Counted from the first letter of the stretch, positions 5,068 through 23,667 are shown. The stretch is DNA of 27,975 nucleotides from Solirubrobacterales bacterium (GCA_038232575.1 JBBSNQ010000001.1:1-27975); one strand, 5' to 3'. Notes: generated from the letters alone by a model not told the origin. A program made the numbers and translations.

Positions 5068-5793
5068 TCAACGAGCGAGCCGGACCGCCTCGAGGCAGAG
5101 CCCGTGCGCTGGAGCCGTCTCCCCCGCCTCTCTCCGCGGCCGACCCTCGAGCAGCCGCTGGAAGTGCTCGAGCGTCTGCCGTCCGGCGGCGACCGCGAGC
5201 ATCGTGCCGGCGAGCACGCGCACCATGTGGCGCAGGAACGAGTCCGCCTCGATCCAGAGCTCGATCAGGTCCGGACCCGCCTCGCCCCACTCGGCGCGCC
5301 TCACCTCGCGCACCGTGTGCTCGTGCTCGGACTGCGCCGGTGTGAAGGCGGTGAAGTCATGGCTGCCGCGCAGCGCCTTGGCGCATCGCTCGAGCGTGCC
5401 GCGATCGACCGGATAGGGCCAGTGCAACGCGCGGCCGTGCTCGAGCGGGCTCGCCGTCGTGCGTGCCAGGACCCGGTAGCGGTAGAGGCGCGCGAGCGCG
5501 TCACGCCGCGCATCGAAGCCCTCGGGCGCGGCTTCGCTCGCCAGCACGCGCACGTCCACCGGCAGCAGCGAGTTCAGCCGCCCGCACCCAAGCGGCGTGC
5601 CCGGATGGCTCGCCACCTGGCCGCGAGCGTGCACGCCGGCATCGGTCCGGCCTGCGACCGTCACCCGCTGCTCGCGGCCGAGCACCTCCGCGATCGCCTC
5701 CTCGAGCACCCCCTGCACGGTGCGCCTGCCCGGCTGGCGCGCCCAGCCCGCGAATGCCCGTCCGTCGTACTCGAGCAGCAGCCTGGCGGTCAC
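5068..5793 (-). CDS. truA: tRNA pseudouridine(38-40) synthase
   Basis: LEYDG...GW..Q, AGRTDAGVHA and FLRHMVR motifs. Start re-called to GTG 5793 (MTARLLLEYDG). Confidence 0.95.
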   Translation of the reverse strand: MTARLLLEYDGRAFAGWARQPGRRTVQGVLEEAIAEVLGREQRVTVAGRTDAGVHARGQVASHPGTPLGCGRLNSLLPVDVRVLASEAAPEGFDARRDALARLYRYRVLARTTASPLEHGRALHWPYPVDRGTLERCAKALRGSHDFTAFTPAQSEHEHTVREVRRAEWGEAGPDLIELWIEADSFLRHMVRVLAGTMLAVAAGRQTLEHFQRLLEGRPRREAGETAPAHGLCLEAVRLAR

Positions 5794-5819
5794 GCTGCGC
5801 TCTCGAGCCTGGCCGACAC
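5790..5819 (-). CDS. Mini-ORF MSARLESAA, stop overlapping truA start
   Basis: SD AGGAG precedes GTG 5819. TGA 5792-5790 overlaps the truA GTG. Confidence 0.35.
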   Translation of the reverse strand: MSARLESAA

Positions 5820-5827
5820 GTCTTCTC

Positions 5828-6631
5828 CTAGGTCGGCTTGCGCGCGACGACCAGCAGATAGTCCGAGTCGATCGCCGCAGAGCCATCCGTGGCCCGGTTG
5901 CACGCCGCCGCCAGCTCGAGCGTCTCCCGGCGCAGCGCGGCGTAGGAGTCCGCGTCGAGCGCCTCGCGCGTGACGAGCTGCGGTCCGACATTGGCAGTCA
6001 TGAACTCCCACATCTCCTCCACCGAGCCGAAGCGGAACGGGACAGTGAGCCGATGCAGCTCGATCGCGGCAGCGAGGCCCTCGAAGCGCTCGCGCACGAT
6101 CTCCTCCACCCCCCAGTCGACCGGCCGGGGCACCCCGTGGGGCAGCGGCCTGTAGCGCGCCGTCAGCGCCGATGCGCGTCCGAAGTAGCCGTCGGGGGTC
6201 CAGCTCGCCATCGCCACGGTGCCGCCCGGCCGGACGACTCGGAAGAGCTCGTGCGCGACGAGTGGCGGGCGCGGGGCGAACATCGCCCCGAATGCCGAGG
6301 TCACGCAGTCGAAGCTCGCGTCGGCGAACGGCAGCTCCTCGGCGTCGGCGAGTCGCCACTCGACCCCGGGGGCCTCGGCGGCCGAGCGCGCGCGACCCAG
6401 CTCGAGCATCGACGGCGTCAGGTCCGTCGCCACCACGCTCGCCCCGGCCTGGGCCGCCAGCACCGCCACGTTGCCGGTACCCGCCCCGACGTCTAGCAGC
6501 CGCTGGCCGGGCGCAAGCGGACAGCGCTCGACGAGCTCGCGCGCTGCCGGCTCGATGACCCTGGCGACCGCCGGATAGTCGCCCCGGCTCCATGCCTCCG
6601 TGGTCCCCTGCTTGAGGCGGGCTACGTCCAT
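5828..6631 (-). CDS. Class I SAM-dependent methyltransferase
   Basis: LLDVGAGTG motif I and DAEELPFADASFD motif. Substrate unknown. Confidence 0.9.
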   Translation of the reverse strand: MDVARLKQGTTEAWSRGDYPAVARVIEPAARELVERCPLAPGQRLLDVGAGTGNVAVLAAQAGASVVATDLTPSMLELGRARSAAEAPGVEWRLADAEELPFADASFDCVTSAFGAMFAPRPPLVAHELFRVVRPGGTVAMASWTPDGYFGRASALTARYRPLPHGVPRPVDWGVEEIVRERFEGLAAAIELHRLTVPFRFGSVEEMWEFMTANVGPQLVTREALDADSYAALRRETLELAAACNRATDGSAAIDSDYLLVVARKPT

Positions 6632-6640
6632 CGCCCTGCG

Positions 6641-6650
6641 ATCCTAGGGT
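6641..6650. promoter_or_regulatory. Overlapping divergent -10 candidates (minus TAGGAT 6646-6641, plus TAGGGT 6645-6650)
   Basis: ATCCTAGGGT gives TANNNT on both strands. The minus hexamer is 9 nt upstream of the methyltransferase ATG. Confidence 0.35.
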
Positions 6651-6765
6651 GAGCGGCGCGGCGCCTCCCGGCGGGCGGCGCAGAGCGCCGCGCCGACCGA
6701 TGCGCGACAATCAGGCGTGGCGGTCGTGCGGCCGCATTGGCGAGCCCGCAATGCAAGGAGGAACG

Positions 6766-7710
6766 ATGGCAACGCAGCGCCGTTCGATCTCGGGGTCAGT
6801 GGTGGCGATCACCGGAGCCGCGCGGGGCATCGGCCGCGCGACGGCCCAAGCCCTGATTCAGAGAGGGGCGCGCGTCGCGATCGGCGACCTCGACCTCGAG
6901 CTCGCCCGCGAGAGCGCCGCAGCGCTTGGCGATGCGGCGGCGGCCTACGAGCTCGACGTCACCGACCGGCGATCCTTCCAGCGCTTCCTCGAGAGCGTCG
7001 AGGGCGATCTCGGTCCGGTCGACGTCCTCGTCAACAACGCCGGCATCATGCCGCTCGGATCCTTCATCGAGGAGGAGGACACGACGGCGGCGCGCATGAT
7101 CGACATCAACCTGCACGGCGTGATGCTCGGCATGAAGCTCGCGCTGCCCGGCATGCTCAAGCGAGGGCGAGGGCACGTCGTGAACATCGCCTCGGGCGCC
7201 GGCAAGTCGGGCTTCGCAGGAGGTGCGACCTACTGCGCCACCAAGCACGCGGTCGTCGGCCTGAGCGAGTCGGTGCTCGCCGAGCTTCGAGGATCCGGAG
7301 TCGAGCTGTCGATCATCATGCCGGGCGTCGTCAAGACGGAGCTGGCCTCCGGCCTCTCCGAGGCGCGGGGGATCAAGAACCTCGAGCCGGAGGACGTCGC
7401 CGCGGCGATCGCCGAGACGCTCGAGCAGCCCCGCTTCGAGGTCTTCGTCCCTCGCTCCGTCGGTCCGATCACGAAGGCCCTCTCGCTGCTCCCGCGCGGC
7501 GCGCGTCAGCGGGTCGCCCAGCTGCTGGGCGCAGACCAGATCCTCGCCACCGTCGACGCCGGCCGCCGCGGCGCGTACGAGCGGCGCATCTCGGCGAGCA
7601 GCGGCGATCCGGCCGCAGGCGGCGGCGACCCGCCCGCGGGCGGCGAGGAGCACACCGGCGAAGACTGGATCCCGGCGGGCACCGGTGGCGCCCGCGAAAC
7701 GCAGCCCTAG
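6766..7710 (+). CDS. Short-chain dehydrogenase/reductase (classical SDR)
   Basis: TGAARGIG, NNAG, and catalytic S plus YCATK. Start re-called to ATG 6766 behind the SD AAGGAGG. Confidence 0.92.
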   Translation: MATQRRSISGSVVAITGAARGIGRATAQALIQRGARVAIGDLDLELARESAAALGDAAAAYELDVTDRRSFQRFLESVEGDLGPVDVLVNNAGIMPLGSFIEEEDTTAARMIDINLHGVMLGMKLALPGMLKRGRGHVVNIASGAGKSGFAGGATYCATKHAVVGLSESVLAELRGSGVELSIIMPGVVKTELASGLSEARGIKNLEPEDVAAAIAETLEQPRFEVFVPRSVGPITKALSLLPRGARQRVAQLLGADQILATVDAGRRGAYERRISASSGDPAAGGGDPPAGGEEHTGEDWIPAGTGGARETQP

Positions 7711-7749
7711 CCGGCGCCGGAGGGCTGCTGCAGCCGAGCCGCCCAGCCG

Positions 7750-8103
7750 CTAGACGAGCTCGAGCAGAACCATCTCGGTCGAATCAGAGCGCCTCGGCCC
7801 GAGCTTGAGGATCCTCGTGTAACCGCCCGGACGCTCGGCGTAGCGCGGCGCGACCTCCTCGAAGAGCTTGTAGGCCGCGTACTTGTCGTGCCCCAGCGAC
7901 GCGAGCGCCTGGCGGCGCGCGTGCAGGTCACGGCGCTTTGCGAGCGTGATCAGCTTCTCGACCTGCGGCTTGACGGCCTTGGCCTTGGCTTGCGTCGTCT
8001 GGATCCGCTCGTGGTCGATCAGCTCTCGCGAGAGGTTCATCAGCAGCGCCTTGCGATGCGAGGAGCTGCGGGAGAGCTTGTGGCGGTTGCGTTGGTGGCG
8101 CAC
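7750..8103 (-). CDS. rplQ: 50S ribosomal protein L17
   Basis: MRHQR..HKLSR and [12 protein letters not shown] motifs. GTG start with a GGAGG SD. Confidence 0.97.
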
Positions 8104-8115
8104 GCCCTCCGCCTC

Positions 8116-8160
8116 CTAGCGACTCCCGCCGCGGGTATCGATGATCGGAGCGAAGAGCAT
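8116..8160 (-). CDS. Spacer mini-ORF MLFAPIIDTRGGSR
   Basis: ATG directly follows the rpoA TAG. Its TAG abuts the rplQ SD, 12 nt before the rplQ GTG, in the same frame. Confidence 0.3.
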   Translation of the reverse strand: MLFAPIIDTRGGSR

Positions 8161-9126
8161 CTAGACCGCATCCCTCAGCGAGAGGCCGCGAGCGCGCAGG
8201 GTCTCGACGACCTCCTCGATCGACTTGCCGCCGAAGTTCGGGATCGCGTTTAGCTCGGACTCGGACTTCTGCAGCAGCTCGCCGACGGTCTGGATGCCGG
8301 CGCGCTTGAGGCAGTTGTAAGAGCGCACGCCCAGCTCGAGCTCCTCGATCAGGATGTCGTCCATACCGCTCGGCGCGGTGGGGGCAAGGACGGCACCCTC
8401 GCCGCTGACTGCCCCGGCACCGTCGCCGCGCAGGGTCGCGAGCGCGTCGGGGTCGACGAAGATCGACAGGCTCTGGATCAGGATCTCCGCCGCCTCGCGC
8501 AGCGCCATCTCCGGCTGCACCGATCCGTCGGTCTCGACATCGAGGGTGAGCTTGTCGTAGTCGGTCCGCTGCCCGACGCGGGCGGCATCCACCTGGTAGG
8601 CGACGCGCTTGACCGGCGAGAAGATCGAGTCGATCGGGATCACGCCGATCGGCTGGTCCTCGTGCTTGTTGTCCTCGGCGGGCGAGTAGCCGCGGCCGCG
8701 GCCGATCGTCAGGTAGATCTCGACCTTGGCCTTCTTCTCGAGCGTCGCGATGTGCACATCGGGGTTGAGCACTTCGACGCCCGCCGGCAGGTCGATGTCG
8801 CCGGCCGTGACCGTCCCCGGCCCGCGCGCGACGAGCAGCACCTCGAGCTCCTCGGCCTCGGAGTGGATCCGGCAGACGATCTCCTTGAGGTTGAGGACGA
8901 TGTCCGTCACGTCCTCGGTGACACCTGCGATCGTCGAGAACTCGTGCGCGACGCCTTCGATGCGTACGCTCGTCACGGCCGCCCCGGCCAGCGAGGAAAG
9001 CAGCACACGCCGCAGCGAGTTGCCGAAGGTGTAGCCGAAGCCGCGGTCGAGCGGCTCAATCGTGAACGTGCCGCGGTTGTCCTCGACTTTCTCGGAGGAG
9101 ATCTGTGGCGTTTGAAACTCGAGCAT
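8161..9126 (-). CDS. rpoA: RNA polymerase subunit alpha
   Basis: EPLDRGFGYTFGNSLRRVLLSS and the alphaCTD VRSYNCLKRAGI motif. Confidence 0.98.
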   Translation of the reverse strand: MLEFQTPQISSEKVEDNRGTFTIEPLDRGFGYTFGNSLRRVLLSSLAGAAVTSVRIEGVAHEFSTIAGVTEDVTDIVLNLKEIVCRIHSEAEELEVLLVARGPGTVTAGDIDLPAGVEVLNPDVHIATLEKKAKVEIYLTIGRGRGYSPAEDNKHEDQPIGVIPIDSIFSPVKRVAYQVDAARVGQRTDYDKLTLDVETDGSVQPEMALREAAEILIQSLSIFVDPDALATLRGDGAGAVSGEGAVLAPTAPSGMDDILIEELELGVRSYNCLKRAGIQTVGELLQKSESELNAIPNFGGKSIEEVVETLRARGLSLRDAV

Positions 9127-9181
9127 GGTGGATCCCTTCAGGTAATCGCTCTTCGGCAGATGCCCGCCGCGGGAGCGCGGC

Positions 9182-9805
9182 TTACTTCGAGTAAAGCTCG
9201 ACGATGAGCTGCGCCTCGACCGGAGTGTCGATCTCGACCCGCTCCGGATCGCGCAGCACCTTCGCCGTCAGCCCGTCGTGGTCGGCCTGCAGCCAGGCCG
9301 GCACGACGGAGACGAGATCGGTCGCGTCGCGCACGATCTCGGTGATCGAGGTCGAGCCCGGCGCCAATGTTATGACGTCGTCGGAGCGCACGTGGTAGGA
9401 GGGCACGTCGACGCGCCGCCCGTTCACGTGCCAGTGTCCGTGCAGCACGAGCTGGCGCGCCTGCCGGCGCGAGCTCGCAAAGCCCAGCCGCACGAGCACG
9501 TTGTCGAGGCGCCGTTCGAGCAGCCGCAGCAGGTTGTCGCCGGTTACGCCGGCCTGGCGGCTCGCCTTCCGGTAGTAGCCGCGGAACTGCCGCTCGAGGA
9601 CGCCGTAGTAGCGGCGGGCCTTCTGCTTCTCGCGCAGCTGGACGCGGTACTCCGACTGCTTCTGGCGGATGCGGCCGTGCTCGCCCGGCGGGTAGGCGCG
9701 GCGCTCGACGCCGCACTTGTCGGTCAGGCAGCGCTCGCCCTTCAGGAATAGCTTGATGCCCTCGCGGCGACACTGCTTGCACTGTGAACCGCGCTCCCGC
9801 GCCAT
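9182..9805 (-). CDS. rpsD: 30S ribosomal protein S4 (Zn-binding C+ form)
   Basis: Start ATG 9805 (TGATG overlap with rpsK). [19 protein letters not shown] and LERRLDN motifs. Confidence 0.97.
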
Positions 9806-10203
9806 CAGACGCGCCTGCGCTTGCGGGGCCGGGCGCCATTGTGTGCCTGCGGCGTGACGTCGCGGATCGATGTGACCTCGAGACCGGCGGCCTGTAGCGA
9901 GCGGACCGCCGTCTCGCGCCCCGAGCCGGGCCCCTTGACGAACACTTCGACCTTCTCGAGCCCGTGCTCCATCCCCTTGCGAGCGGCCGCGTCGGCCGTC
10001 ACCTGGGCGGCGAAGGGCGTGGACTTGCGCGAGCCCTTGAAGCCCGCGCCGCCTGCAGACTCCCACGCTATGACGTTGCCGTCGGAGTCGGTCATCGCGA
10101 TGATCGTGTTGTTGAAGGAGGTCTTGATGTGCGCTTGGCCGACGGGGATGTTCTTGCGCGTCTTGCGGCGCCCCCGTCCAGCTCCTGATCGCGGCTGCGG
10201 CAT
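9805..10203 (-). CDS. rpsK: 30S ribosomal protein S11
   Basis: [20 protein letters not shown] and [12 protein letters not shown] motifs. Confidence 0.98.
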
Positions 10204-10206
10204 CGT

Positions 10207-10587
10207 CTACTTGCCTGCCTTCTTCTTGCCTGCGACCTGCATGCGGCGCGGGCCCTTGCGCGTGCGGCCGTTGGTCTTCGTCCGCTGGCCCTTCACCGGC
10301 AGACCGCGCCGGTGGCGGATCCCGCGGTAGGCGCCGATCTCGGTCAACCGCTTGACGCTCTGCGAGCGCTCGCGGCGCAGGTCCCCCTCGACCGTCAGGC
10401 GCTCGTCGATCACCTCGCGCAGCTTGATCGTCTCGTCGTCGGTGAGATTCCGGATGTAGGTGTCCCGCCCAATGCCCGTGCGCTCGAGGATCTCGCGTGC
10501 ACGCGCGGGACCGACTCCGTAGATGTAGGTGAGCCCGACCTCGGCCCGCTTGTTGAGCGGCAGGTTGATCCCGGCGATGCGTGCCAT
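10207..10587 (-). CDS. rpsM: 30S ribosomal protein S13
   Basis: Start re-called to ATG 10587 ([10 protein letters not shown]). [20 protein letters not shown] motif. Confidence 0.97.
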
Positions 10588-10592
10588 CTCTA

Positions 10593-10706
10593 TCAGCCCT
10601 GCCTCTGCTTGTGGCGCGCGTTCGGGCATATGACCAGCACCGTCCCGCGACGCCGGATCACCTTGCACTTCTCGCACATGGGCCTGACTGAAGCCCTGAC
10701 CTTCAA
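10593..10706 (-). CDS. rpmJ: 50S ribosomal protein L36 (Zn-ribbon form), TTG start
   Basis: (M)[36 protein letters not shown], 37 aa, with GAGGT upstream. Confidence 0.95.
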
Positions 10707-10738
10707 CGCTTCGCTACCTCGTTCTTGGAGAGATGTAC

Positions 10739-10792
10739 GGCGCCGCGGCCCAGGAGTCGGCCGCGCGCCACAGGCGACCGGAAAGAGTAGCA
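10739..10792 (-). promoter_or_regulatory. Extended -10 (TGcTACTCT, hexamer 10789-10784) plus leader hairpin (10769-10739) for the rpmJ-alpha cluster
   Basis: TGn-TANNNT lies immediately after the map stop. The stem GGCGC-GCGGCC/GGCCGC-GCGCC gives 11 bp with one bulge. Confidence 0.5.
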
Positions 10793-10793
10793 A

Positions 10794-11585
10794 TCACGAG
10801 GCCTTGCGCTCCTCGGCTGGGCTCTCCTGCCCCTGCAGGTGCCAGGGCGTGAGGATGCGAGGGCCCTCGGCGGTGATCGCGACGGTGTGCTCGAAGTGCG
10901 CGGCGAGCGAGCCGTCCTGCGAGTAGATCGCCCACTGGTCCTCGCCCAGCCTGATCGGATGCGAGCCGGCGTTGACCATCGGTTCGATGGCGAGCACCAT
11001 GCCCTCGGCGAGCTCCGGTCCCGTGCCCGGCGACCCATAATTGGGCAGCTGCGGATCCTCATGCATGTCACGGCCGACCCCGTGGCCCACCAGCGACCTC
11101 ACGATCGAGAAGTCGTCGGCCTCGACGCGCTTCTGGACCGCGTGCGAGATGTCCCCGAGGCGGCCGCCGGGGCGGCAGCGCTCGACCGCCTCGAACAGCG
11201 CCTCCCGCGTGGCCTCGAGCAGCCGGTTGGCGATCGGGCTCACCGGTCCGATCGGCATCGTGACCGCCGCATCGGCGATCCAGCCGTCGAGCCGGACGCC
11301 GACGTCGACTGAGAGCACATCGCCGCGCCTCAGCCGGTAGGGCCCAGGGATGCCGTGGACGACCATCGAGTTGGGTGAGGTGCAGATCGAGCCCGGGAAG
11401 CCGCGGTAGCCCTTGAAGGCCGGCTCGCCGTCCTGCGAGCGGATGAAGCGCTCGGCCGCCGTGTCGAGCTCGAGCGTAGTCACTCCGGGCCGTGCCTTGC
11501 CGCGCAGTAGCGCGAGGCAGCGGGCGAGGACATCGCCGGCGGCGGCGATCTGGTCGATCTCCTGCGGGGACTTCCTGAGGATCAT
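10794..11585 (-). CDS. map: Methionine aminopeptidase type I
   Basis: CTSPNSMVVHGIP, DVG...D, GHGVG..MHEDP, EPM and HFEHTV metal ligands. Confidence 0.97.
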   Translation of the reverse strand: MILRKSPQEIDQIAAAGDVLARCLALLRGKARPGVTTLELDTAAERFIRSQDGEPAFKGYRGFPGSICTSPNSMVVHGIPGPYRLRRGDVLSVDVGVRLDGWIADAAVTMPIGPVSPIANRLLEATREALFEAVERCRPGGRLGDISHAVQKRVEADDFSIVRSLVGHGVGRDMHEDPQLPNYGSPGTGPELAEGMVLAIEPMVNAGSHPIRLGEDQWAIYSQDGSLAAHFEHTVAITAEGPRILTPWHLQGQESPAEERKAS

Positions 11586-11642
11586 CGAACGGCCCGGCCC
11601 TGCACCAGGCGGCCTAGAGGGCCCTCGCGAGACGTTCGCCCA

Positions 11643-12317
11643 CTAGAGCTCCGCCTCGAGGCGCAGTGTCCGCAGCGTCGCGCTGATGCGGTCCCAGACC
11701 TCGTCGGCCGAGCGGCTGCCGTCGAGGCGGTGCAGGATGCTCTGCTCCTCGTAGTGCTCGATCAGCGGCTCGGTCTGGGCGTGGTAGGTCTCGAGCCGGT
11801 GGCGCAACGTCTCCGGCTCGTCGTCCGAGCGCTGCTTGAGCGGCGAGCCGTCGCGGTCGCAGACCCCCTCGCGGTCGGGGGGATCGAACTCGACGTGGTA
11901 GAGATGCCCGCTCTGCTCGCAGATCCGGCGGCCCGACAGGCGCCTGATCACCTCCTCGTCCCCGGCTTCGATCAGCAGCGCGGCCGTCAGCCGGCGTCCG
12001 CGCCGCTCGAGGCCCTGCTCGAGCGACTCGGCCTGCGCGGCGGTCCGCGGGAAACCGTCGACCACGAAGCCGTCGGCGGCTTCGTCGGAGTCGACGCGCT
12101 CGGTCACGACCGCCGTGATCAGCTCGTCCGGCACGAGGTCGCCGCGCTCCATGTAGCTGCCCGCCTCGCGGCCGAGCTCCGACTCTTCCTTGACCGCCGC
12201 GCGCAGGATGTCCCCGGTCGCATAGTAGGGCAGCTCGAAGTCCTCGACCAAGCGCTCGGCCTGGGTTCCCTTGCCGGCCCCCGGGGGGCCGAGTAGGACT
12301 AGGTTGAGCTCGCCCAC
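11643..12317 (-). CDS. adk: Adenylate kinase (long LID)
   Basis: GPPGAGKGTQA P-loop, DGFPRT and the LID segment RRIC..SG..Y...C..DG. Confidence 0.97.
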   Translation of the reverse strand: MGELNLVLLGPPGAGKGTQAERLVEDFELPYYATGDILRAAVKEESELGREAGSYMERGDLVPDELITAVVTERVDSDEAADGFVVDGFPRTAAQAESLEQGLERRGRRLTAALLIEAGDEEVIRRLSGRRICEQSGHLYHVEFDPPDREGVCDRDGSPLKQRSDDEPETLRHRLETYHAQTEPLIEHYEEQSILHRLDGSRSADEVWDRISATLRTLRLEAEL

Positions 12318-12326
12318 AGCCGCGCA

Positions 12327-12332
12327 AGGGTA
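12327..12332 (-). promoter_or_regulatory. Putative -10 hexamer TACCCT for adk-map
   Basis: TANNNT lies 9 nt upstream of the adk GTG, with no SD. Confidence 0.45.
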
Positions 12333-12383
12333 GCGTGGCCGCCGTGCCGGCGCCCGATCGCGGGTCCCGGCCGGCCCCGTTCT

Positions 12384-12416
12384 GGGCTCGGGGCCGGCGA
12401 CCCCGGCTCCGAGCCC
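12384..12416 (-). terminator. GC-rich stem-loop directly after secY (terminator or stabilising hairpin, no U-tract)
   Basis: GGGCTCGG-A-GCCGG / CCGGC-C-CCGAGCCC gives 13 bp with one mismatch, 4 nt after the stop. Confidence 0.5.
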
Positions 12417-12420
12417 GGAG

Positions 12421-13692
12421 CTACTTCAGGAAGCCCTCGTAGTTGCGCATCATCAGCTGAGCCTCGAGCTGCTTCATCGTGTCGAGCGCCACGCCCACGA
12501 CGATCAGGATCGAGGTGCCGCCGAAGAAGAAGTTGGCACCGGTCTGGCTGATCAAGATCGTCGGCAGCGCGGCGATCGCCGCGAGGTAGAGCGCCCCCGG
12601 GAAGGTGAGGCGGGCGAGAATGCGGTCGAGGAACTCCGCCGTCGGCCGGCCGGGCCGCACGCCCGGCACGAAGCCGCCGTGCTTCTTCAGGTTGTCGGCC
12701 TGCTCGACTGGGTTGAAGGTGACCGCCGTGTAGAAGTAGGTGAAGACGATGATCATCAGCGACTCGCCGATCAGGAATGCGGGTCCGCTCGGGCGGAAGA
12801 GAACCGCGAGGTCCTGCGCCCACTGCGCCTGGGAGAGCGTCCCGACGGTCGGCGGGAAGGCCATCAGCGAGGCGGCGAAGATGACCGGGATCACGCCTGC
12901 CATGTTCACGCGCAGCGGCAGGTAGGTCGAGCCGCCGCCCGCCATCCGGCGCCCGATCATGCGCTTGGCGTACTGGATCGGTATCCGGCGCTGGCCCTCC
13001 TGCATGAAGACGATGCCGACGATCACCGCCATCGCCAGGAAGGGCATCATCACGCGGAAGACCTGATCGGGGCTCGTCCACCATCCCTGGATGCCCTGCG
13101 GGAGGCTCGAGACGATGCTCGCGAAGATCATCAGCGAGATGCCGTTGCCGATCCCGCGCTGGGTGATCAACTCGCCGAGCCACATCACGAGCACCGTGCC
13201 CGCGGTCAGCGTCACGACGATCGTGAAGACGGTCGCGAAGCCGAAGTTGTCGACGACCTCGGCGCCGCCGCTCGAGGCAAAGCTCCGGAACAGGAACGTG
13301 TACCCGATCGCCTGGCCGAAGGCGAGCGCGACTGTCAGGTAGCGCGTGTACTGGGTGATCCGCTGCTGACCGACCTCGCCCTCCTTGCGCAGCTTCTCGA
13401 GCGTCGGAACGACGACGGTCATCAGCTGCAGGATGATCGAGGCGGTGATGTAGGGCATGATCCCGAGCGCGAAGATCGCGAAGCGCTGCAGACTGCCGCC
13501 CGAGAAGGTGTTCAGGAAGCCGAGCACGTTGCCGCCGCCGAACTGCGCGGAGGCGGCGCTGATGGCGTCGGGGTTGATGCCCGGTGCCGGGATGTAGGCG
13601 CCGAAGCGGTAGAGCAGAAGCATCGCCGCGGTGAAGGCGATCTTCCTGCGGATCTCGGGAATCCGCAGCGAGTTGGTGAGCGTCTGGAGCAT
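12421..13692 (-). CDS. secY: Preprotein translocase subunit SecY
   Basis: ALGIMPYITASII, GIGNGISL and GGTSILIVVGVA motifs, with multiple TM helices. Confidence 0.98.
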   Translation of the reverse strand: MLQTLTNSLRIPEIRRKIAFTAAMLLLYRFGAYIPAPGINPDAISAASAQFGGGNVLGFLNTFSGGSLQRFAIFALGIMPYITASIILQLMTVVVPTLEKLRKEGEVGQQRITQYTRYLTVALAFGQAIGYTFLFRSFASSGGAEVVDNFGFATVFTIVVTLTAGTVLVMWLGELITQRGIGNGISLMIFASIVSSLPQGIQGWWTSPDQVFRVMMPFLAMAVIVGIVFMQEGQRRIPIQYAKRMIGRRMAGGGSTYLPLRVNMAGVIPVIFAASLMAFPPTVGTLSQAQWAQDLAVLFRPSGPAFLIGESLMIIVFTYFYTAVTFNPVEQADNLKKHGGFVPGVRPGRPTAEFLDRILARLTFPGALYLAAIAALPTILISQTGANFFFGGTSILIVVGVALDTMKQLEAQLMMRNYEGFLK

Positions 13693-13701
13693 CGCCGCGG
13701 C

Positions 13702-13725
13702 CTAGATAGTCGGGGGATCGATCAT
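13702..13725 (-). CDS. Spacer mini-ORF MIDPPTI
   Basis: ATG directly follows the rplO TAG. It stops 9 nt before the secY ATG, in the same frame. Confidence 0.3.
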   Translation of the reverse strand: MIDPPTI

Positions 13726-14235
13726 CTAGTGCTCGAGCAGGGTGGCGCTCCCGCCCGCGGCCTCGATCTTCGCGCGTGCCTGGCGCGAGAACCCGTGCGC
13801 GCTGACCGTCAGCGGCTTCGAGAGCTCGCCGCGGGCGAGAACCTTGACCGGGGAGTCCTTGCGCGTCGCGAGCCCGCGCGCGGCGAGCTCGGCCGGTCCG
13901 ACCGAGGCGCCGCTCTCGAAGCGTGCATCGAGATCCTCCAGGTTGACGGGCTGCGAGTGGGTGCGGAACTGCTCGAAGGGCATCGACTTCTTCATGTGCG
14001 GCCCGCGCAGCTTGCGCATGCGCATGTGGATCGGCATCTGCCCGCCCTCGTAGGCGACGTTGCGCTTGGCGCCCGTGCGAGCCCCGGCACCCTTATGGCC
14101 GCGACCGGCGGTCTTGCCGTGGCCGGATCCCTCGCCGCGTCCGACCCGCTTGGCGGCGTGCCTCGACCCGCGCGCGGGCGCTAGTCGGTGAAGCAGCCCC
14201 GCCGGCGGATCCTCCTCGCGGGGGCGCTCAGCCAT
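13726..14235 (-). CDS. rplO: 50S ribosomal protein L15
   Basis: RVGRGEGSGHGKTAGRGHKG and YEGGQMP motifs. Confidence 0.97.
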   Translation of the reverse strand: MAERPREEDPPAGLLHRLAPARGSRHAAKRVGRGEGSGHGKTAGRGHKGAGARTGAKRNVAYEGGQMPIHMRMRKLRGPHMKKSMPFEQFRTHSQPVNLEDLDARFESGASVGPAELAARGLATRKDSPVKVLARGELSKPLTVSAHGFSRQARAKIEAAGGSATLLEH

Positions 14236-14440
14236 CGGCCTGCTCCTCGACCCGCACGAGATGGGCGACCGCGTACAGGGCGCCGCGGACGGTCGGATCG
14301 TCGGGACGATCGGCCACGGCCCCGATCCTGCCCAGGCCGAGCGTACGCAGCGTCGCGCGCTGGCGCGCGCTGGTGCCGTTCGGGGAGCGCACCTGGGTGA
14401 CCCTGACAGTGCGCTGGCGCTCGGCGGCCGCGGCTGCCAC
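14228..14440 (-). CDS. rpmD: 50S ribosomal protein L30
   Basis: VTQVRS..G...RQRATLRTLGL motif. GTG start via TAGTG overlap with rpsE. Confidence 0.93.
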   Translation of the reverse strand: MAAAAAERQRTVRVTQVRSPNGTSARQRATLRTLGLGRIGAVADRPDDPTVRGALYAVAHLVRVEEQADG

Positions 14441-15105
14441 TACGCGCTCGCCCCGCTCGGCGAGGCATCCTCGGCGGCGGGCGCAGCCGCCGGCTCGGTC
14501 GCCGGCTCGCTCGAGGTGCCCTCGCCAGGCTTCCCGGCCGCCGCGCTGTCGGCAGGCTGCTTCACCGCCGCGCCGTTGCCGCCGCGGCGGACGTCGATGC
14601 CGAGCACCTCGCGCACGGAGAGCCCGCGGAGCTCGGCAACGTCGCGCGGACTGCGCAGCGACTTGAGCCCCGCCATCGTCGCTCGCACCAGGTTGGTCGG
14701 GTTCTGCGAGCCGAGCGACTTGGAGAGCACGTCGCGGATCCCGGCCAGCTCGAGCACGGCGCGCACGCCACCGCCGGCGATGACGCCCGTTCCCTCCGAG
14801 GCCGGCTTGAGGAAGACCCTGCCGGCGCCGTGCACGCCCGTCACCTGATGGGTGATCGTCGAGCCGTGCATCGGCACCTCGTAGAGGTTCCTGCGCGCGC
14901 GCTCGACGCCCTTCTGGATCGCGAGGGGAACCTCGTTGGCCTTGCCGTAGCCGACACCGACCTGCGAGCGCTCATCGCCGACCACTACGAGCGCGGTGAA
15001 CGAGAAGCGGCGTCCGCCCTTGACCACCTTTGCGACGCGGTTGATCTCGACGACCCGCTCCTGCAGGTCGCCGCCGCCCGGCCCTGTGCGATCGCCGCGT
15101 GCCAT
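14440..15105 (-). CDS. rpsE: 30S ribosomal protein S5 with Ala/Pro/Glu-rich C-terminal tail
   Basis: Start re-called to ATG 15105. [16 protein letters not shown] and GTGVIAGG motifs. Confidence 0.96.
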
Positions 15106-15137
15106 GAGCTCGTTCGAGGGTACCTGACGCCCCCGCG

Positions 15138-15491
15138 CTAGAAGCGCAGGCCGCCCTCTCGCGCACCCTCGGCGAGCGCTCGCACGCGGCCGTGGTAGCG
15201 GTAGCCGCCGCGATCGAAGACGCACGCCTCGGTGCCCGCCTCGCGGGCGCGCGCGCCGATCAGCTCGCCGGCCCTGCGCGCCTGCTCCATCCTGCCCAGG
15301 TCGCGCAGGTCGGCCTCGGTCCAGCTGACGGCCGCGACCGTGTGGCCGCGGTCGTCGTCGATCAGCTGCGCATGCAGCCCGCGATTGGAGCGGAAGACGG
15401 CGAGCCGTGGCCGTTCGGCCGAGCCGCGGATCTTGGCGCGTACGCGCCTGCGGCGGCGCAGGCGCTTGGCGGGACGGGTCGCTTGACTCAT
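15138..15491 (-). CDS. rplR: 50S ribosomal protein L18
   Basis: [10 protein letters not shown] and [12 protein letters not shown] motifs. Confidence 0.97.
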
Positions 15492-16021
15492 GCGCGTTTA
15501 CCCACCTTGCGGGTGACCTGCTCGCCTTCGTAACGAATGCCCTTGCCCTTGTAGGGCTCCGGTGGGCGCACCTTGCGCACGCGCGCCGCGGTCTCGCCGA
15601 CCTGCTGCTTGGAGACCCCTCGCACCACGACCCGAGTCGGCTGCGGGACCTCGAACTCGATGCCGTAGGGCGCTTCGAGCACGACCGGGTGCGAGTAGCC
15701 GACCGCGAGCTGGAGATCGCTGCCGCGCAGCGTCGCGCGATAGCCGACCCCCTGGATCTCGAGCCGGCGCTCATAGCCGTGAGTCACCCCTTGGACCATG
15801 TTGGCGATCAAGGAGCGGGTGAGACCGTGCAGGGCGCGATGCTCGCCGCGCTCGGTCGGGCGGCTGACGCGGACCTCGCCATCCTCCTGCTCGACGGCCA
15901 TGTCGAGCGACACGCGCTCGGCGAGCTCACCCTTCGGCCCGTTGACGCGCACGACGCCCGGCTCGATCGCAACGGTGACGCCCTCGGGCACCGCGATCGG
16001 CGCTCTGCCGATGCGGCTCAC
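15488..16021 (-). CDS. rplF: 50S ribosomal protein L6
   Basis: Start re-called to GTG 16021 (MSRIGRAPI). [13 protein letters not shown] motif. Confidence 0.96.
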
Positions 16022-16140
16022 GACGCCCCAGATGGTTGATTTCGCGGCCGCCTGGGTCTGGGGGCAGGCGGGCGGGGTCGTGGACTCACCCATCTAGCCC
16101 GCGCGCGCGCAATCCTCTGCCTGTCAGCGAGATCCCCCAT
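16018..16140 (-). CDS. 40-aa Arg/Pro-rich spacer ORF between rpsH and rplF
   Basis: ATG lies 4 nt after the rpsH TAG. Manual translation gives [40 protein letters not shown]. Its TGA overlaps the rplF GTG. Codon usage is atypical. Confidence 0.35.
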   Translation of the reverse strand: MGDLADRQRIARARARWVSPRPRPPAPRPRRPRNQPSGAS

Positions 16141-16144
16141 GGCG

Positions 16145-16543
16145 CTAGTAGACCTCGGCGACGACCTCGCCGCCGATCCCCGCCGCGCGCGCCTCGTGTC
16201 CGCTCATGACCCCCTGCGAGGTCGACAGCACCGCGGTCCCCATGCCGCCGAGGACCTTGGGTATCTCGCCGGCGCCCACGTAGGTGCGCAGGCCGGGACG
16301 CGAGACCCGCCGCAGCGACGATATGACCGGCTGGCGGCTCGCCGCGTACTTGAGCCGCACGGCTATCACCTCGCCCACGCGAGCCGGCTCGACCGAGTAG
16401 CCCTCGATGTAGCCCTGCTCGGTCAGCAGCCGCGCGAGCTCGACCTTGAACTTCGACGCCGGCATCTCCACGACCTCGTGGCTGGCCGCAAGGCCGTTTC
16501 GGATGCGGGTCAGGAAGTCGGCTACCGGATCGGTCATGCTCAT
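16145..16543 (-). CDS. rpsH: 30S ribosomal protein S8
   Basis: MTDPVADFLTRIRN, RVSRPGLR.Y and STSQGVM motifs. Confidence 0.98.
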   Translation of the reverse strand: MSMTDPVADFLTRIRNGLAASHEVVEMPASKFKVELARLLTEQGYIEGYSVEPARVGEVIAVRLKYAASRQPVISSLRRVSRPGLRTYVGAGEIPKVLGGMGTAVLSTSQGVMSGHEARAAGIGGEVVAEVY

Positions 16544-16553
16544 CGCAAGCCTC

Positions 16554-16739
16554 CTACCAGCTCGACTTCACGAGGCCGGGCACGTAGCCCTCGTGGGCGA
16601 GCTCGCGCAGGCAGATCCGGCAGAGGCCGAACTTGCGGATGTAGGCGCGCGGGCGCGAGCAGCGCCGGCAGCGGTGGTTCACCCTCGTCTTGTACTTCGC
16701 CGGGCGCTGTGCGCGCGCGACCTGTGCCTTCTTCGCCAT
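16554..16739 (-). CDS. rpsZ: 30S ribosomal protein S14 type Z (Zn-binding)
   Basis: 61 aa with CRRC...CRIC. Confidence 0.96.
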
Positions 16740-16741
16740 GC

Positions 16742-17344
16742 CTAGGCCTCGCTTCCGTTGCTGCTCGGCTCCGGACGACCCTCGCGGGCGAACGGCATCC
16801 CGAAGGCCTCGAGCAGCGCGAGCGCCTCGGCATCGGTGCTCGCCGAGGTGGTGATCGCGATGTCGAGGCCGCGCACCTGGTCGATGGCGTCGTAGTCGAT
16901 CTCCGGAAAGATGATCTGCTCCCTGAGTCCCATCGAATAGTTGCCGCGCCCGTCGAAGGAGCGCGCGTTCAGTCCGCGGAAGTCTCGCACGCGCGGGATC
17001 GCGATCGACATCAGCCGGTCGAGGAACTCGTACATGCGCGTGTCGCGCAGCGTGACCGCCACGCCGATCGGCATGCCGTCGCGCAGCTTGAAGCCGGCGA
17101 TCGAGCGGCGCGCCACACGCACGTTCGGCGCCTGCCCGGCGATCGTCGCGAGCTGGCTCTTGGCCGACTCGAGCAGCTTTGAGTCCTGCTTTGCCTCGCC
17201 GATGCCCATGTTGACCGTGATCTTGACGAGCCGCGGCACGTCCATCGCGCTCGAGTAGCCGAAGCGCTCGCGCAGCTGGGGCGCCAGCGCACTGTTGTAG
17301 TGCTCCTTCAGGCGGGGCACGATCGTGGGCGCGGGAGCACTCAT
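16742..17344 (-). CDS. rplE: 50S ribosomal protein L5
   Basis: Start re-called to ATG 17344 (TGATG overlap with rplX). IPRVRDFRG and [10 protein letters not shown] motifs. Confidence 0.97.
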
Positions 17345-17670
17345 CAGTCGATCGCCTCCCCCGTACGGCGGGCGATGCGGGTGCGCCGCCCGCCCTCGCG
17401 GCGGATGCCGACGCGCGTGGCGTCGCCGCTCTTCGGATCGAGCAGCATCACGTTCGACACGTGGATCGGCCCCTCCGACTCGACCACTCCGCCCACCTTG
17501 CCGCCCTTCTGGGTGTCGCGCACCGTCGTGGGGCGCTCGTGGCGCTTGCGCATGTTCAGCCCCTCGACGTAGACGCGCTCCTTCGCGCGATCGACGCGCA
17601 GGACGCGGCCGGTCTTGCCGAGGTCCTTGCCGGAGATCACCTTGACCATGTCGTCGCGACGCACCTTCAC
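17344..17670 (-). CDS. rplX: 50S ribosomal protein L24
   Basis: GTG 17670 gives [19 protein letters not shown] (KOW motif). EGPIHVSNV motif. Confidence 0.94.
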
Positions 17671-17711
17671 GAGGTGATTGGCTCCGCGGCCGCGTGTGCA
17701 CGGGGGCCCAT
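17667..17711 (-). CDS. Spacer mini-[17 protein letters not shown]
   Basis: ATG directly follows the rplN TAG. Its TGA overlaps the rplX GTG. Confidence 0.35.
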
Positions 17712-18080
17712 CTAGAGGACCTCCGGCGCGAGCGAGACGATCTTCATGAAGTTCCGGTCGCGCAGCTCGCGCGCCACCGGCCCGAAGATGCGCGTCCCGC
17801 GCGGGTTGCGTTGGGGATCGATCAGGACCGCGGCGTTCTCGTCGAAGGCGATGTAGGTGCCGTCCTCGCGCCCCAGCTGCTTGCGCGTGCGCACGATGAC
17901 CGCGCTGACGACCTCGCCCTTGCGGACCGACCCGTTCGGGATAGCCCGCTTCACGGTGCCCACGATCACGTCGCCCACGCCTGCGTGGCGCCGGCGCGAG
18001 CCGCCCGGGATGCGAATGCACAGGAGCTCGCGCGCACCCGTGTTGTCGGCGATGCGCAGCCGGGTCTCGACACTGATCAT
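17712..18080 (-). CDS. rplN: 50S ribosomal protein L14
   Basis: ADNTGA and [13 protein letters not shown] motifs. Confidence 0.98.
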
Positions 18081-18490
18081 CGCGCCCGCTCCAGGATCTC
18101 GTCCAGCCGCCAGCGCTTGGTGCGGCTCAGCGGGCGGGTCTCGAGCACGCGCACGGTATCGCCGGTGTGCGCCTCGTTGCGCTCGTCGTGGGCGTGCAGC
18201 TTCGACGACTCGCGCAGGATCTTCTTGTAGACCGGGTGGCGCCGCGTCACGTCGATGCGCACGACGATCGTCTTGTCGCCCTTGTCGGAGACGACGAGTC
18301 CCTGGCGCGTGCGCCGGCTGCCCTCGGCGCGCGGGGCGGGCTCCGGCGCCGGGGCGCGCGAGGACGCTCCCTGAACGCGCTTCTTACTCTGGCTTGCGCG
18401 CCACCTGCGGCGCGAGGCAGCGCGCGCCCGGCGCTGGGCGGCGCGCTCGGCGCGCCGGGCCTTCGTGTCGATCTGCTCAGCCTTGGACAT
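18077..18490 (-). CDS. rpsQ: 30S ribosomal protein S17 with basic N-terminal extension
   Basis: Core [16 protein letters not shown]...HDE.N...GDTV...[10 protein letters not shown], preceded by about 55 extra aa. Confidence 0.94.
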
Positions 18491-18707
18491 CGCTCTGCCT
18501 CCGCAACTCCCGCTCCAGGTCGATGCCGCGCTCTCGGACCACGGTCAGGCCGCGGGCTAGATCGCGCTTGGTGGTGTCAATCCGCGCCGTGTTCTCGAGC
18601 TGACCCGTAGCGTGCTGGAAGCGCAGGTTGAACAGCTCCCGGCGCCGTTCGCCGACGAGCTCGACGAGCTGGTCATCCTCGAGCGCGTGCACCTCGCTGC
18701 CCTTCAC
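18477..18707 (-). CDS. rpmC: 50S ribosomal protein L29
   Basis: GTG 18707 (GTGA overlap with rplP). [16 protein letters not shown] motif. Confidence 0.95.
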
Positions 18708-19138
18708 GCGCCCACCGCGCCCGATTCGACTCCCTCGCGCAGCACGAAGCGCGTCTTGACCGGAAGCTTGTGGCCCGCCAGGCGCATGGCCTCGCGGGCG
18801 AGCGGCTCCGGCACGCCGGCGAGCTCGAACATGACCCGGCCGGGCTTGACCACCGCGACCCAGCCCTCGGGCGAGCCCTTGCCCGAGCCCATGCGCGTCT
18901 CCGCCGGCTTCTTCGTCACCGGCTTGTCGGGGAAGATGTTGATCCAGACCTTGCCGCCGCGCTTGATCTTGCGCGTCATCGCGATCCGGGCGGCCTCGAT
19001 CTGGCGATCTGTCACCCAACCCCGATCGAGCGCCTTCAGGCCGTACTCGCCGAACGAGACGACCGTGCCACCGCGTGAGTAGCCGGCGCGGCGGCCGCGG
19101 TGCTGCTTGCGATGCTTGACGCGCTTGGGCTGGAGCAC
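18704..19138 (-). CDS. rplP: 50S ribosomal protein L16
   Basis: GTG 19138 gives [25 protein letters not shown] motif. Confidence 0.97.
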
Positions 19139-19140
19139 GA

Positions 19141-19965
19141 TCAGCCACCCGGCCTTGCGGACTGCGCCGGCGCTGCGCCGGCGGGCGGGCGGTTGCCGGC
19201 CGTGGATGGACCACGACCGTCGCCGGGTGGGCGGCCCCCGCCACCCCCGGGCCCGCGGCTCGCGCCACCGCGCGCTCCGCCGGGCCGGCCAGGTGCCTGC
19301 GTGGGCGCATCGAGCTGGGTCAGATCCTGCGCGAAGCCCGACGGCATGATCTCGCCCTTGTTGATCCAGACCTTCACGCCGATGCGGCCGAAGGTCGTCT
19401 TGGCCTCGAAAAAGCCGTAGTCGATGTCGGCGCGGAAGGTGTGCAGCGGCACGCGGCCCTCGGAGTAGCCCTCGGTGCGCGCCATCTCCGAGCCGCCGAG
19501 CCGACCGGAGACCTGGACCTTGACCCCCTTGGCGCCCGAGCGCATCGCGGAGGTCAACGAGCGCTTCATCGCGCGGCGAAAGGCGACCCGGTTGACGAGC
19601 TGCTCGGCGATCGACTGCGCCACGAGCCTCGAGTCGAGCTCGGGACGCTTGATCTCGAGGATGTTGACCCGCACCGACTTCTGCGTCATCCGGTGAAGCT
19701 CCCTGCGCAGGGCGTCGACCTCGGAGCCGGACTTGCCGATCACGATCCCGGGGCGGGCGGTGTGGATGTTGACCTCGACCTCGGTCTGGCTCTTCTTGAT
19801 CGTGATCTGGGAGAGGCCGGCGTGCGCGAGCTTGCCCTCGATGTGCTCGCGGATCTTGACGTCCTCGAGCAGGTAGTCGGCGTAGTTGCGCTCGTTGAAC
19901 CAGGTCGACTTCCAATCGTGGATGTAGCCGACCCGCAACGCCTCTGGGTGGATCTTCTGGCCCAT
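19141..19965 (-). CDS. rpsC: 30S ribosomal protein S3 with Gly/Arg/Pro-rich C-terminal tail
   Basis: [17 protein letters not shown] and GRVPLHT.RADIDY motifs. Confidence 0.98.
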
Positions 19966-19971
19966 GCGCGC

Positions 19972-20580
19972 CTACTCCTTGGGTGTCAGGGTGATGGTCA
20001 TGTGACTCGTGCGCTTGCGGATCGGCGTCGCCCGCCCGAGCGCGCGCGGGCGGAAGCGCTTGAGCGTGGGGCCCTCGTCGACGTAGGCCCGGTGCACTCT
20101 CATATCCTCGCCCACGAGCTCGTGGTTGTTCTCCGCATTCGCGATCGCGGACTCGAGCAGCTTGAGTATGTCGCGTGCGGCCCCGCGGGGTGTGAGCGCC
20201 AGCACGGAGCGCGCCTCGGCGACCGGCTTGCCGCGGATATGGTCGATCACGAGCCGGGCCTTCCGCGGAGCGCAGCGGACGTACTTGGCCTGGGCGCGCA
20301 CGACCACCGCGCCGCCGGCGTCACGGCCCGCCGCGCGCTTGGGCGTCGCCGCTGCCACCTCGGCCGACCCGCGCCGGCGCGCGGCGCGCGACGGCTGCTT
20401 TCCTGCCTCGGCCTCAGCCTCGGCCGAGTCGCCTGCTTCGGGCTCGCCCTTCGCCGGCTCGCCCTTCGCCGCCGCGCCCTCTGGCTCCCCGTCTGGACCG
20501 CCCTCGAGACGCTCGGCATCGTCGTCCGTATCGCTCGGGTCGCTCTTCTCGCGATCGCTCTTTCGCTTGCGCTCTGCCAT
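19972..20580 (-). CDS. rplV: 50S ribosomal protein L22 with about 90-aa N-terminal extension
   Basis: Core AQAKYVR..PRKARLV...[26 protein letters not shown] precedes ATG 20580. Confidence 0.95.
20441..20470. repeat. Perfect 15-bp tandem repeat x2 (GGCTCGCCCTTCGCC) encoding AKGEP repeats in the L22 extension
   Basis: Bases 20441-20455 and 20456-20470 are identical. Confidence 0.85.
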
Positions 20581-20612
20581 CAGTCGTTCCTCAAGCTAGC
20601 GGTGGCGCTCAT
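20580..20612 (-). CDS. Spacer mini-[13 protein letters not shown]
   Basis: ATGA overlap with the rpsS stop and TGATG overlap with the rplV start. Confidence 0.4.
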
Positions 20613-23648: not shown

Positions 23649-23667
23649 GTGTGGTTCGGTCGAGTCA

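Follow-up and report, generated by a model that had tools for sequence, protein, structure and literature searches.

The stretch of DNA analysed here (the window, 27,975 nucleotides (nt)) is contig C1 of a Solirubrobacterales metagenome bin of 1.94 Mb in 411 contigs, with a GC content of 71.6%, a completeness of 88.7% and a contamination of 2.7%. The S10-spc-alpha ribosomal operon runs along its minus strand between rpsJ (23648) and rplQ (7750). Genes were called with our own simple codon-bias caller, and the identities and starts of the key genes were checked with NCBIfam; the rplF start was set at GTG 16021 from the NCBIfam profile and the N-termini of relatives. An earlier note on this DNA had described six mini-open reading frames (mini-ORFs) starting with ATG in spacers between genes, and had read them as a translational relay across the operon. 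All six lie on the minus strand where the note had placed them; five start with ATG and the sixth with GTG. Between rpsJ and rplQ, most neighbouring genes overlap or are separated by no more than 10 nt, as the note had also reported. Judged from sequence comparison, however, the mini-ORFs in the operon spacers are mostly the ends of a small transposon that lands on stop codons, a miniature transposable element with inverted repeats (MITE). The connection between MITE and mini-ORFs is new here, and nothing was found in the literature on this element in Solirubrobacterales or Conexibacter.

The features described below are all on the minus strand. A 70-nt copy of the element occupies positions 16028..16097 of the rpsH–rplF spacer. 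It was detected by nhmmer with seeds from outside the window (E 2e-8) and by the covariance model R1, which was trained with no copy from the window and then run on it (E 3.4e-12). The copy has inverted ends, an interior that is C-rich on the mRNA strand, and a predicted hairpin of -26.6 kcal/mol (z -3.1). It is traversed by a mini-ORF of 40 codons (16018..16140), the ATG of which lies 4 nt past the rpsH TAG and the stop of which is contained in the GTGA at the rplF start. The Arg/Pro-rich peptide read from this stretch corresponds to the C-rich interior in translation, and the inverted repeat seen there to the two ends of the element. The part of the spacer upstream of the MITE (16098..16144, 47 nt) is absent in the same-genus relatives, in which the rpsH–rplF spacer measures 2–13 nt. 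The rplN–rplX spacer is filled by a decayed copy of 46 nt (17670..17715; nhmmer E 3.4e-4, R1 E 9.8e-6), which overlaps the rplN TAG with its left end and shares its last base with the G of the rplX GTG. This copy has lost the hairpin (z -0.7). Its mini-ORF of 14 codons (17667..17711) starts with a TAG-ATG abutment and stops in the GTGA at the rplX start.

At the rplO–secY junction, a stub of 28 nt (13702..13729; R1 E 0.017, hairpin z -3.8) consists of the two inverted ends only and contains a mini-ORF of seven codons (13702..13725), again with a TAG-ATG start. If 24 nt are subtracted from this spacer, 9 nt are left, compared with 9–10 nt in the same-genus relatives. A fourth segment, of 49 nt (8116..8164), follows the rpoA stop, begins and ends with CTAG, and bears the 7-mer of the repeat on the stop codon. 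It includes a 14-codon mini-ORF with a TAG-ATG start (8116..8160) and is possibly a decayed copy of the MITE. A blastn search of the genome found no repeats in this rpoA–rplQ spacer, in the 5′ part of the rpsH–rplF spacer, or in the rpsS–rplV, methyltransferase (MTase)–truA, secY–adk, adk–map, rpsD–rpoA, rplR–rpsE and fusA–tuf spacers.

The element is a palindromic repeat. The left end reads CTAGATG followed by a GAT-CC motif, and the right end is the reverse complement of the left, finishing with CATCTAG. About 22–24 copies of 45–70 nt were found on many contigs of the assembly with nhmmer, and 19 with the covariance model. Most copies lie outside the ribosomal genes. Two copies (C2:126-191 and C14:101-166) have identical flanks at contig ends and most likely represent one locus assembled twice, so that the copy counts are slightly inflated. 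As expected for a MITE, the element is short (28–70 nt), lacks a transposase gene and is dispersed in several copies; its terminal inverted repeats of 15–16 nt are paired in 88.8% of the cells over 16 copies. Whole copies are predicted to form RNA hairpins with energies between -29 and -36 kcal/mol on the mRNA strand, and still stronger ones on the opposite strand. Covariation within the hairpin did not exceed that of shuffled controls, and only the outer 6 pairs were retained by RNAalifold. The word CTAG is five-fold under-represented in the genome, and stop codons account for 277 of its 982 sites. The frequent location of the element on a stop codon is explained by its seeking CTAG or TA, as many CTAG sites are stops. 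A TAG is present on both sides of the rplO–secY insertion and only once at empty sites, TA and TAG being indistinguishable with such ends.

The junctions were compared in 20 relatives, including three of the same genus. At rplN–rplX and rpsH–rplF, the genes of the relatives overlap or are at most 14 nt apart (-4 to 14 nt at rplN–rplX, and 40 nt in one genome), and at rplO–secY they overlap or leave a gap of at most 18 nt. The sole exception among the relatives is a genome of another genus with a long copy of the element at rpsH–rplF. In the same-genus relatives, the gaps at the three junctions range from -4 to 13 nt, which indicates that the spacers, with the ORFs in them, arose by recent insertion and are not conserved. 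Likewise, a copy on contig C28 is missing in two genomes of the same genus, where a 7-nt TAG junction is found instead. Presence and absence at orthologous sites are thus documented at rplN–rplX, rpsH–rplF, rplO–secY and the C28 site, and junctions that are tight in the ribosomal operon are the ancestral state in the Thermoleophilia (Solirubrobacterales-type) group. The copy number is patchy, with 19 copies here and 0–11 in 60 relatives. The long copy in the other genus (L039:3645-3810 in genome G018) and a degenerate copy found directly behind the rplQ TAG in a same-genus genome (L031:10310-10367 in G003) show that the ribosomal operon was hit more than once.

As the bin is fragmented and contains some contamination, spacers and frame breaks could be thought to be errors of metagenome assembly. 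This is barely credible, since contigs from the metagenomes of other studies bridge the rpoA–rplQ, rplO–secY, rpsH–rplF and rpsS–rplV spacers with 0–1 differences. These four spacers are not assembly artefacts, and assembly frameshifts, which the earlier note had named as a possible source of the mini-ORFs, do not account for them.

In the relatives, elements of 42 to 222 nt are delimited by the same ends, with a long form of 165–171 nt (around 168 nt), and so is one element of 988 nt (L160:4158-5145). With the IS982 transposase model NF033520, the ORF of the latter reaches 143 bits, above the cut-off of 130, and it matches the Pfam family DDE_Tnp_1. An autonomous element with the ends of the MITE is thus found in relatives only. 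Of 301 genomes of the order, 36 contain full-length copies of this insertion sequence (IS). These copies measure 978–1011 nt and contain a single ORF of about 300–320 residues between inverted repeats, a size that fits the IS982 family, the members of which are about 1 kb long with one transposase gene and 5′-AC-3′ ends (PMC7335449). The partner IS looks like a divergent subgroup of this family. A pattern scan of 185,579 species retrieved repeat matches mostly in Thermoleophilia (Solirubrobacterales, Conexibacter, Patulibacter, Gaiellales), which assigns the repeat, and with it the lineage of the window, to this class. An IS630-type transposase encoded on contig C369 was considered as the partner and rejected because its ends differ, although it is also inserted in CTAG. 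That element (L070, DDE_3), which has a TA on both sides, belongs to an unrelated second family using the same rare word.

Strong hairpins placed right behind stop codons, with an orientation bias relative to transcription, are also what would be expected of repetitive extragenic palindromic (REP) sequences or REPINs spread by a RAYT (Y1) transposase, or of RNA hairpins serving regulation or processing in the ribosomal operon. Both possibilities are very improbable. No Y1 transposase (PF01797) was found in this assembly with a search that matched in control genomes, and the ends of the repeat are common to IS982-type elements. Further points against them are that Rfam models gave no hit anywhere in the window with E up to 1, that most copies are located away from ribosomal genes, and that the rplN–rplX copy has lost its hairpin.

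It is to the MITE that the mini-ORFs of the operon are attributed: very probably, they were made by its insertion on TAG stop codons, and any relay would be a by-product of the ends of the element, not an adaptation of the operon. The MITE has inserted at three junctions, perhaps four, in forms of 28–70 nt (against around 168 nt for the long form). Its landing site is the TA within a TAG stop codon, usually in the rare CTAG. The first base of the element rebuilds the TAG and the next three provide an ATG, and the far end reads CATCTAG. The sequences show that, with this layout, each insertion automatically yields an ATG abutting the stop and often a stop just ahead of the next gene. It is presumed that ribosomes ending at the upstream TAG would probably restart at the ATG of the element, melt the hairpin and stop beside the downstream start. 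Insertions inside operons would then be tolerated.

The abutments are more frequent than expected by chance, as the earlier note had estimated. Over the genome, a non-start ATG lies directly behind 16 of 1440 stops, compared with about 0.4% at neighbouring offsets. All 16 are TAG-ATG, and all bear the end of the family or a look-alike, three of them (including rpoA–rplQ) without a significant match to the model. The excess of non-start TAG-ATG thus arises because the sequence is a transposon end, and not from selection at each junction. The count of the hexamer TAGATG alone was discarded as uninformative evidence, since Ile-Tyr codons read in antisense often give it. The comparison with shuffled spacers that the note had proposed also gave an excess, with relay-type ORFs (stop-adjacent, starting with ATG) in 36 of the 589 spacers of the genome against 17.3 ± 2.9 after shuffling. 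Nine of the 36 are in the 15 repeat-bearing spacers, where 0.1 was expected; the other 27 are in repeat-free spacers, against 17.0 expected.

These 27 ORFs speak for a selected relay, in which a mini-ORF in every long spacer of the operon would prevent ribosomes from leaving the mRNA, serving stoichiometric coupling or shielding from Rho. The geometry of the mini-ORFs, with stop and start abutting on the 5′ side and a terminal stop that falls in the following start or close to it, fits termination-reinitiation, and several downstream starts lack a Shine-Dalgarno sequence. Moreover, the right end of the decayed rplN–rplX copy has changed, so that the stop of its ORF is now provided by the GTGA of rplX. 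Such selection is nevertheless unlikely. All cases of TAG-ATG are transposon ends or look like them, these ORFs accompany the element at its other sites as well as in this operon, and the shuffled control ignores the stop-rich composition preceding start codons. The conservation of frame and position that the note had proposed as a check fails, as the spacers and ORFs of rplN–rplX, rpsH–rplF and rplO–secY are absent from relatives, those of the same genus included. A relay that evolved across the operon is thus not retained; a passive relay borne by the transposon is plausible from the geometry, the orientation and the open frame of the copies.

Orientation and frame also bear on whether the IS982-type family as a whole, IS and MITEs, has adapted to stop-start junctions, with ends that rebuild the TAG, supply the ATG and finish with a TAG, the frame being open throughout. 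This adaptation is possible but doubtful. Eleven copies in the genome overlap a stop codon with their left end, and all 11 are co-oriented with the gene concerned. The long copies elsewhere comprise 13 that are co-oriented only, two that are reversed only and two that are both. Of 25 long copies in which the left TAG is readable, 19 have no stop in the ATG frame, namely all 17 with a length that is a multiple of three and two with the ATG 2 nt further in; each of the other six has one stop. The other two sense frames of the long copies have 1–2 stops each. Read from end to end on the transposase strand, four of six full-length elements have a frame with no stop, compared with 2.5–5.6 stops after codon shuffling (P 0.001–0.064 each), and this frame (+1) is open in none of 310 host genes of similar size. 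On both strands, the full-length elements L160:4158-5145, L221, L238 and L240 are open from the ATG end to the TAG end.

Counting against the adaptation of the family, the copies are related, so that the counts of orientation and frame are not independent. The open antisense frame is the usual shadow frame of high-GC genes, found in 36% of host genes. Both frames are broken in 6 of the 12 full-length copies (11 and L160), and the short copies have no preference for a frame. Finally, with both strands open, the orientation bias is left unaccounted for; the stronger hairpin on the antisense strand may be responsible for it.

A DAHP-synthase gene (L265:1107-2199; around 2806-3898 on contig C40 of the present genome) appears to start right after an upstream TAG, with the exact pattern of the left end of the MITE. 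The ATG of the element may serve as the real start of this gene, as would befit an element adapted to such junctions; alternatively, the gene may start at an internal Met about 31 codons downstream. At this junction, the matches in relatives cover the upstream gene only.

Several observations weigh against the attribution of the mini-ORFs to MITE insertions. The element ends, (C)TAGATG…CATCTAG, lack the 5′-AC-3′ given for IS982 (PMC7335449), and no IS982 transposase was found in this assembly (88.7% complete, 411 contigs) with protein and family-model searches. The rplO–secY stub is only a marginal match, and that of the rpoA–rplQ segment is not significant (R1 E 1.7, 8164-8137), the blastn repeat search being negative there. 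The palindromic ends allow either TA or TAG as the duplicated target. In the short copies of this genome, read by eye, the ATG frame reaches the far-end stop in 5 of 12, when 4 are expected. The excess of relay-type ORFs in repeat-free spacers, 1.3–1.6-fold, is without explanation here, and the genome-wide counts rest on gene calls from our own simple caller.

The element resembles the MITEs of the IS982 family, such as MITECca01, found beside ISCca4 in Cardinium (PMC9769881; family reviewed in PMC7335449), in being a short non-coding element with the ends of an IS of about 1 kb. The transposase of the partner passes the IS982 model, and derivatives with internal deletions exist in several sizes. 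It differs from the Cardinium MITE in being smaller (28–70 nt, or around 168 nt in the long form, against about 240 nt), and from the IS982 family in its ends, (C)TAGATG instead of 5′-AC-3′, its preference for TAG stops and its hosts, the Thermoleophilia. No stop-codon-seeking type is mentioned in a review of MITEs. The interspersed repetitive units of mycobacteria (MIRUs; Supply 1997, as summarised in the 2025 review PMC12548453) are mobile intergenic repeats in operons, with a small ORF coupled to the flanking gene, and this coupling is thought to make the insertion harmless. MIRUs are inserted at start codons with a -4 overlap (PMC12548453), whereas the element described here sits on the upstream stop codon. 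Both are intra-operon mobile repeats with their own small ORF; only the proposed logic of coupling is shared, and the copies found here, which are single, palindromic and provided with an IS partner, do not belong to the MIRUs. MIRUs are direct tandem units without inverted ends, and are not known to have a transposase.

Other transcribed palindromes within operons, REP/BIME, Correia, ERIC and RUP, share with the element effects of orientation and hairpins near stops. The differences are the absence of a RAYT gene here, a transposase of another family, and ends into which stop and start codons are built. The Rickettsia palindromic elements (PMC10969869) are also mobile palindromes that keep an open frame through themselves, but they insert in frame and join the protein (PMC10969869), whereas the present element stands behind a stop as a separate mini-ORF.

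With the MITE, an adaptive story is replaced by a mechanical one that can be tested, in which a stop-seeking element writes mini-ORFs even into an operon that ranks among the most conserved. Annotators should expect such ORFs in the spacers of Thermoleophilia, and should not take them for small proteins, leader peptides or antimicrobial-like peptides. If the ends were indeed adapted, ribosomes would be handed across the insertion, and the ribosomal-protein operon would carry the element without polarity. The element would then be a portable natural model of termination-reinitiation coupling, and a second independent case beside the mycobacterial MIRUs.

Two of the six mini-ORFs are not derived from the repeat. 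That of the rpsS–rplV junction (20580..20612, 10 codons) begins in an ATGA shared with rpsS and finishes in the TGATG where rplV starts. Most relatives use the start codon that overlaps the rpsS stop for rplV itself, with a variable acidic extension behind it. Here, the frame opened by the overlapping ATG stops after 10 codons and rplV restarts at TGATG; contigs of two other studies are identical here or differ by one letter. By comparison with these relatives, the mini-ORF is best described as the ancestral rplV start, separated from the gene where the frame of a dispensable N-terminal extension is broken. The case that the earlier note had named as refuting its view, mini-ORFs created by stops in true N-terminal extensions, thus holds for this junction only. 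In the L22 protein (rplV, 19972-20580), the L22 domain is preceded by an N-terminal extension of acidic low-complexity sequence, about 95 residues long, and the extensions of relatives are equally long and unrelated in sequence.

The MTase–truA mini-ORF (5790..5819, nine codons), with its GTG start and its stop in a GTGA, lies outside the ribosomal operon. Relay-type ORFs starting with GTG are present in 64 of 574 repeat-free spacers (11%), against 48.8 after shuffling, and the one before truA is of a type that is common by chance.

Other features of the operon were noted. The rplR–rpsE (15103-15124) and secY–adk (12315-12334) spacers, on the minus strand, contain a TAnnnT hexamer resembling a -10 element about 11–12 nt before the start codon, and no Shine-Dalgarno sequence. 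The motif and its spacing recur in many relatives, which suggests internal promoters giving leaderless rpsE and adk transcripts. The tuf–rpsJ spacer (23649-23667) measures 19 nt, compared with 67–87 nt in nine relatives, which have there a conserved GC-rich hairpin resembling a terminator or attenuator; this hairpin seems to have been deleted in the present genome. In rplE (17334-17346), the ATG of a TGATG overlap with rplX is in frame eight codons upstream of the called GTG. This ATG is probably the true start, as in most relatives, and the junction would then be an overlap instead of a gap of 23 nt. Finally, rpmJ (L36, 10593-10706) starts with TTG, and no infA lies between map and rpmJ, its place in many bacteria.

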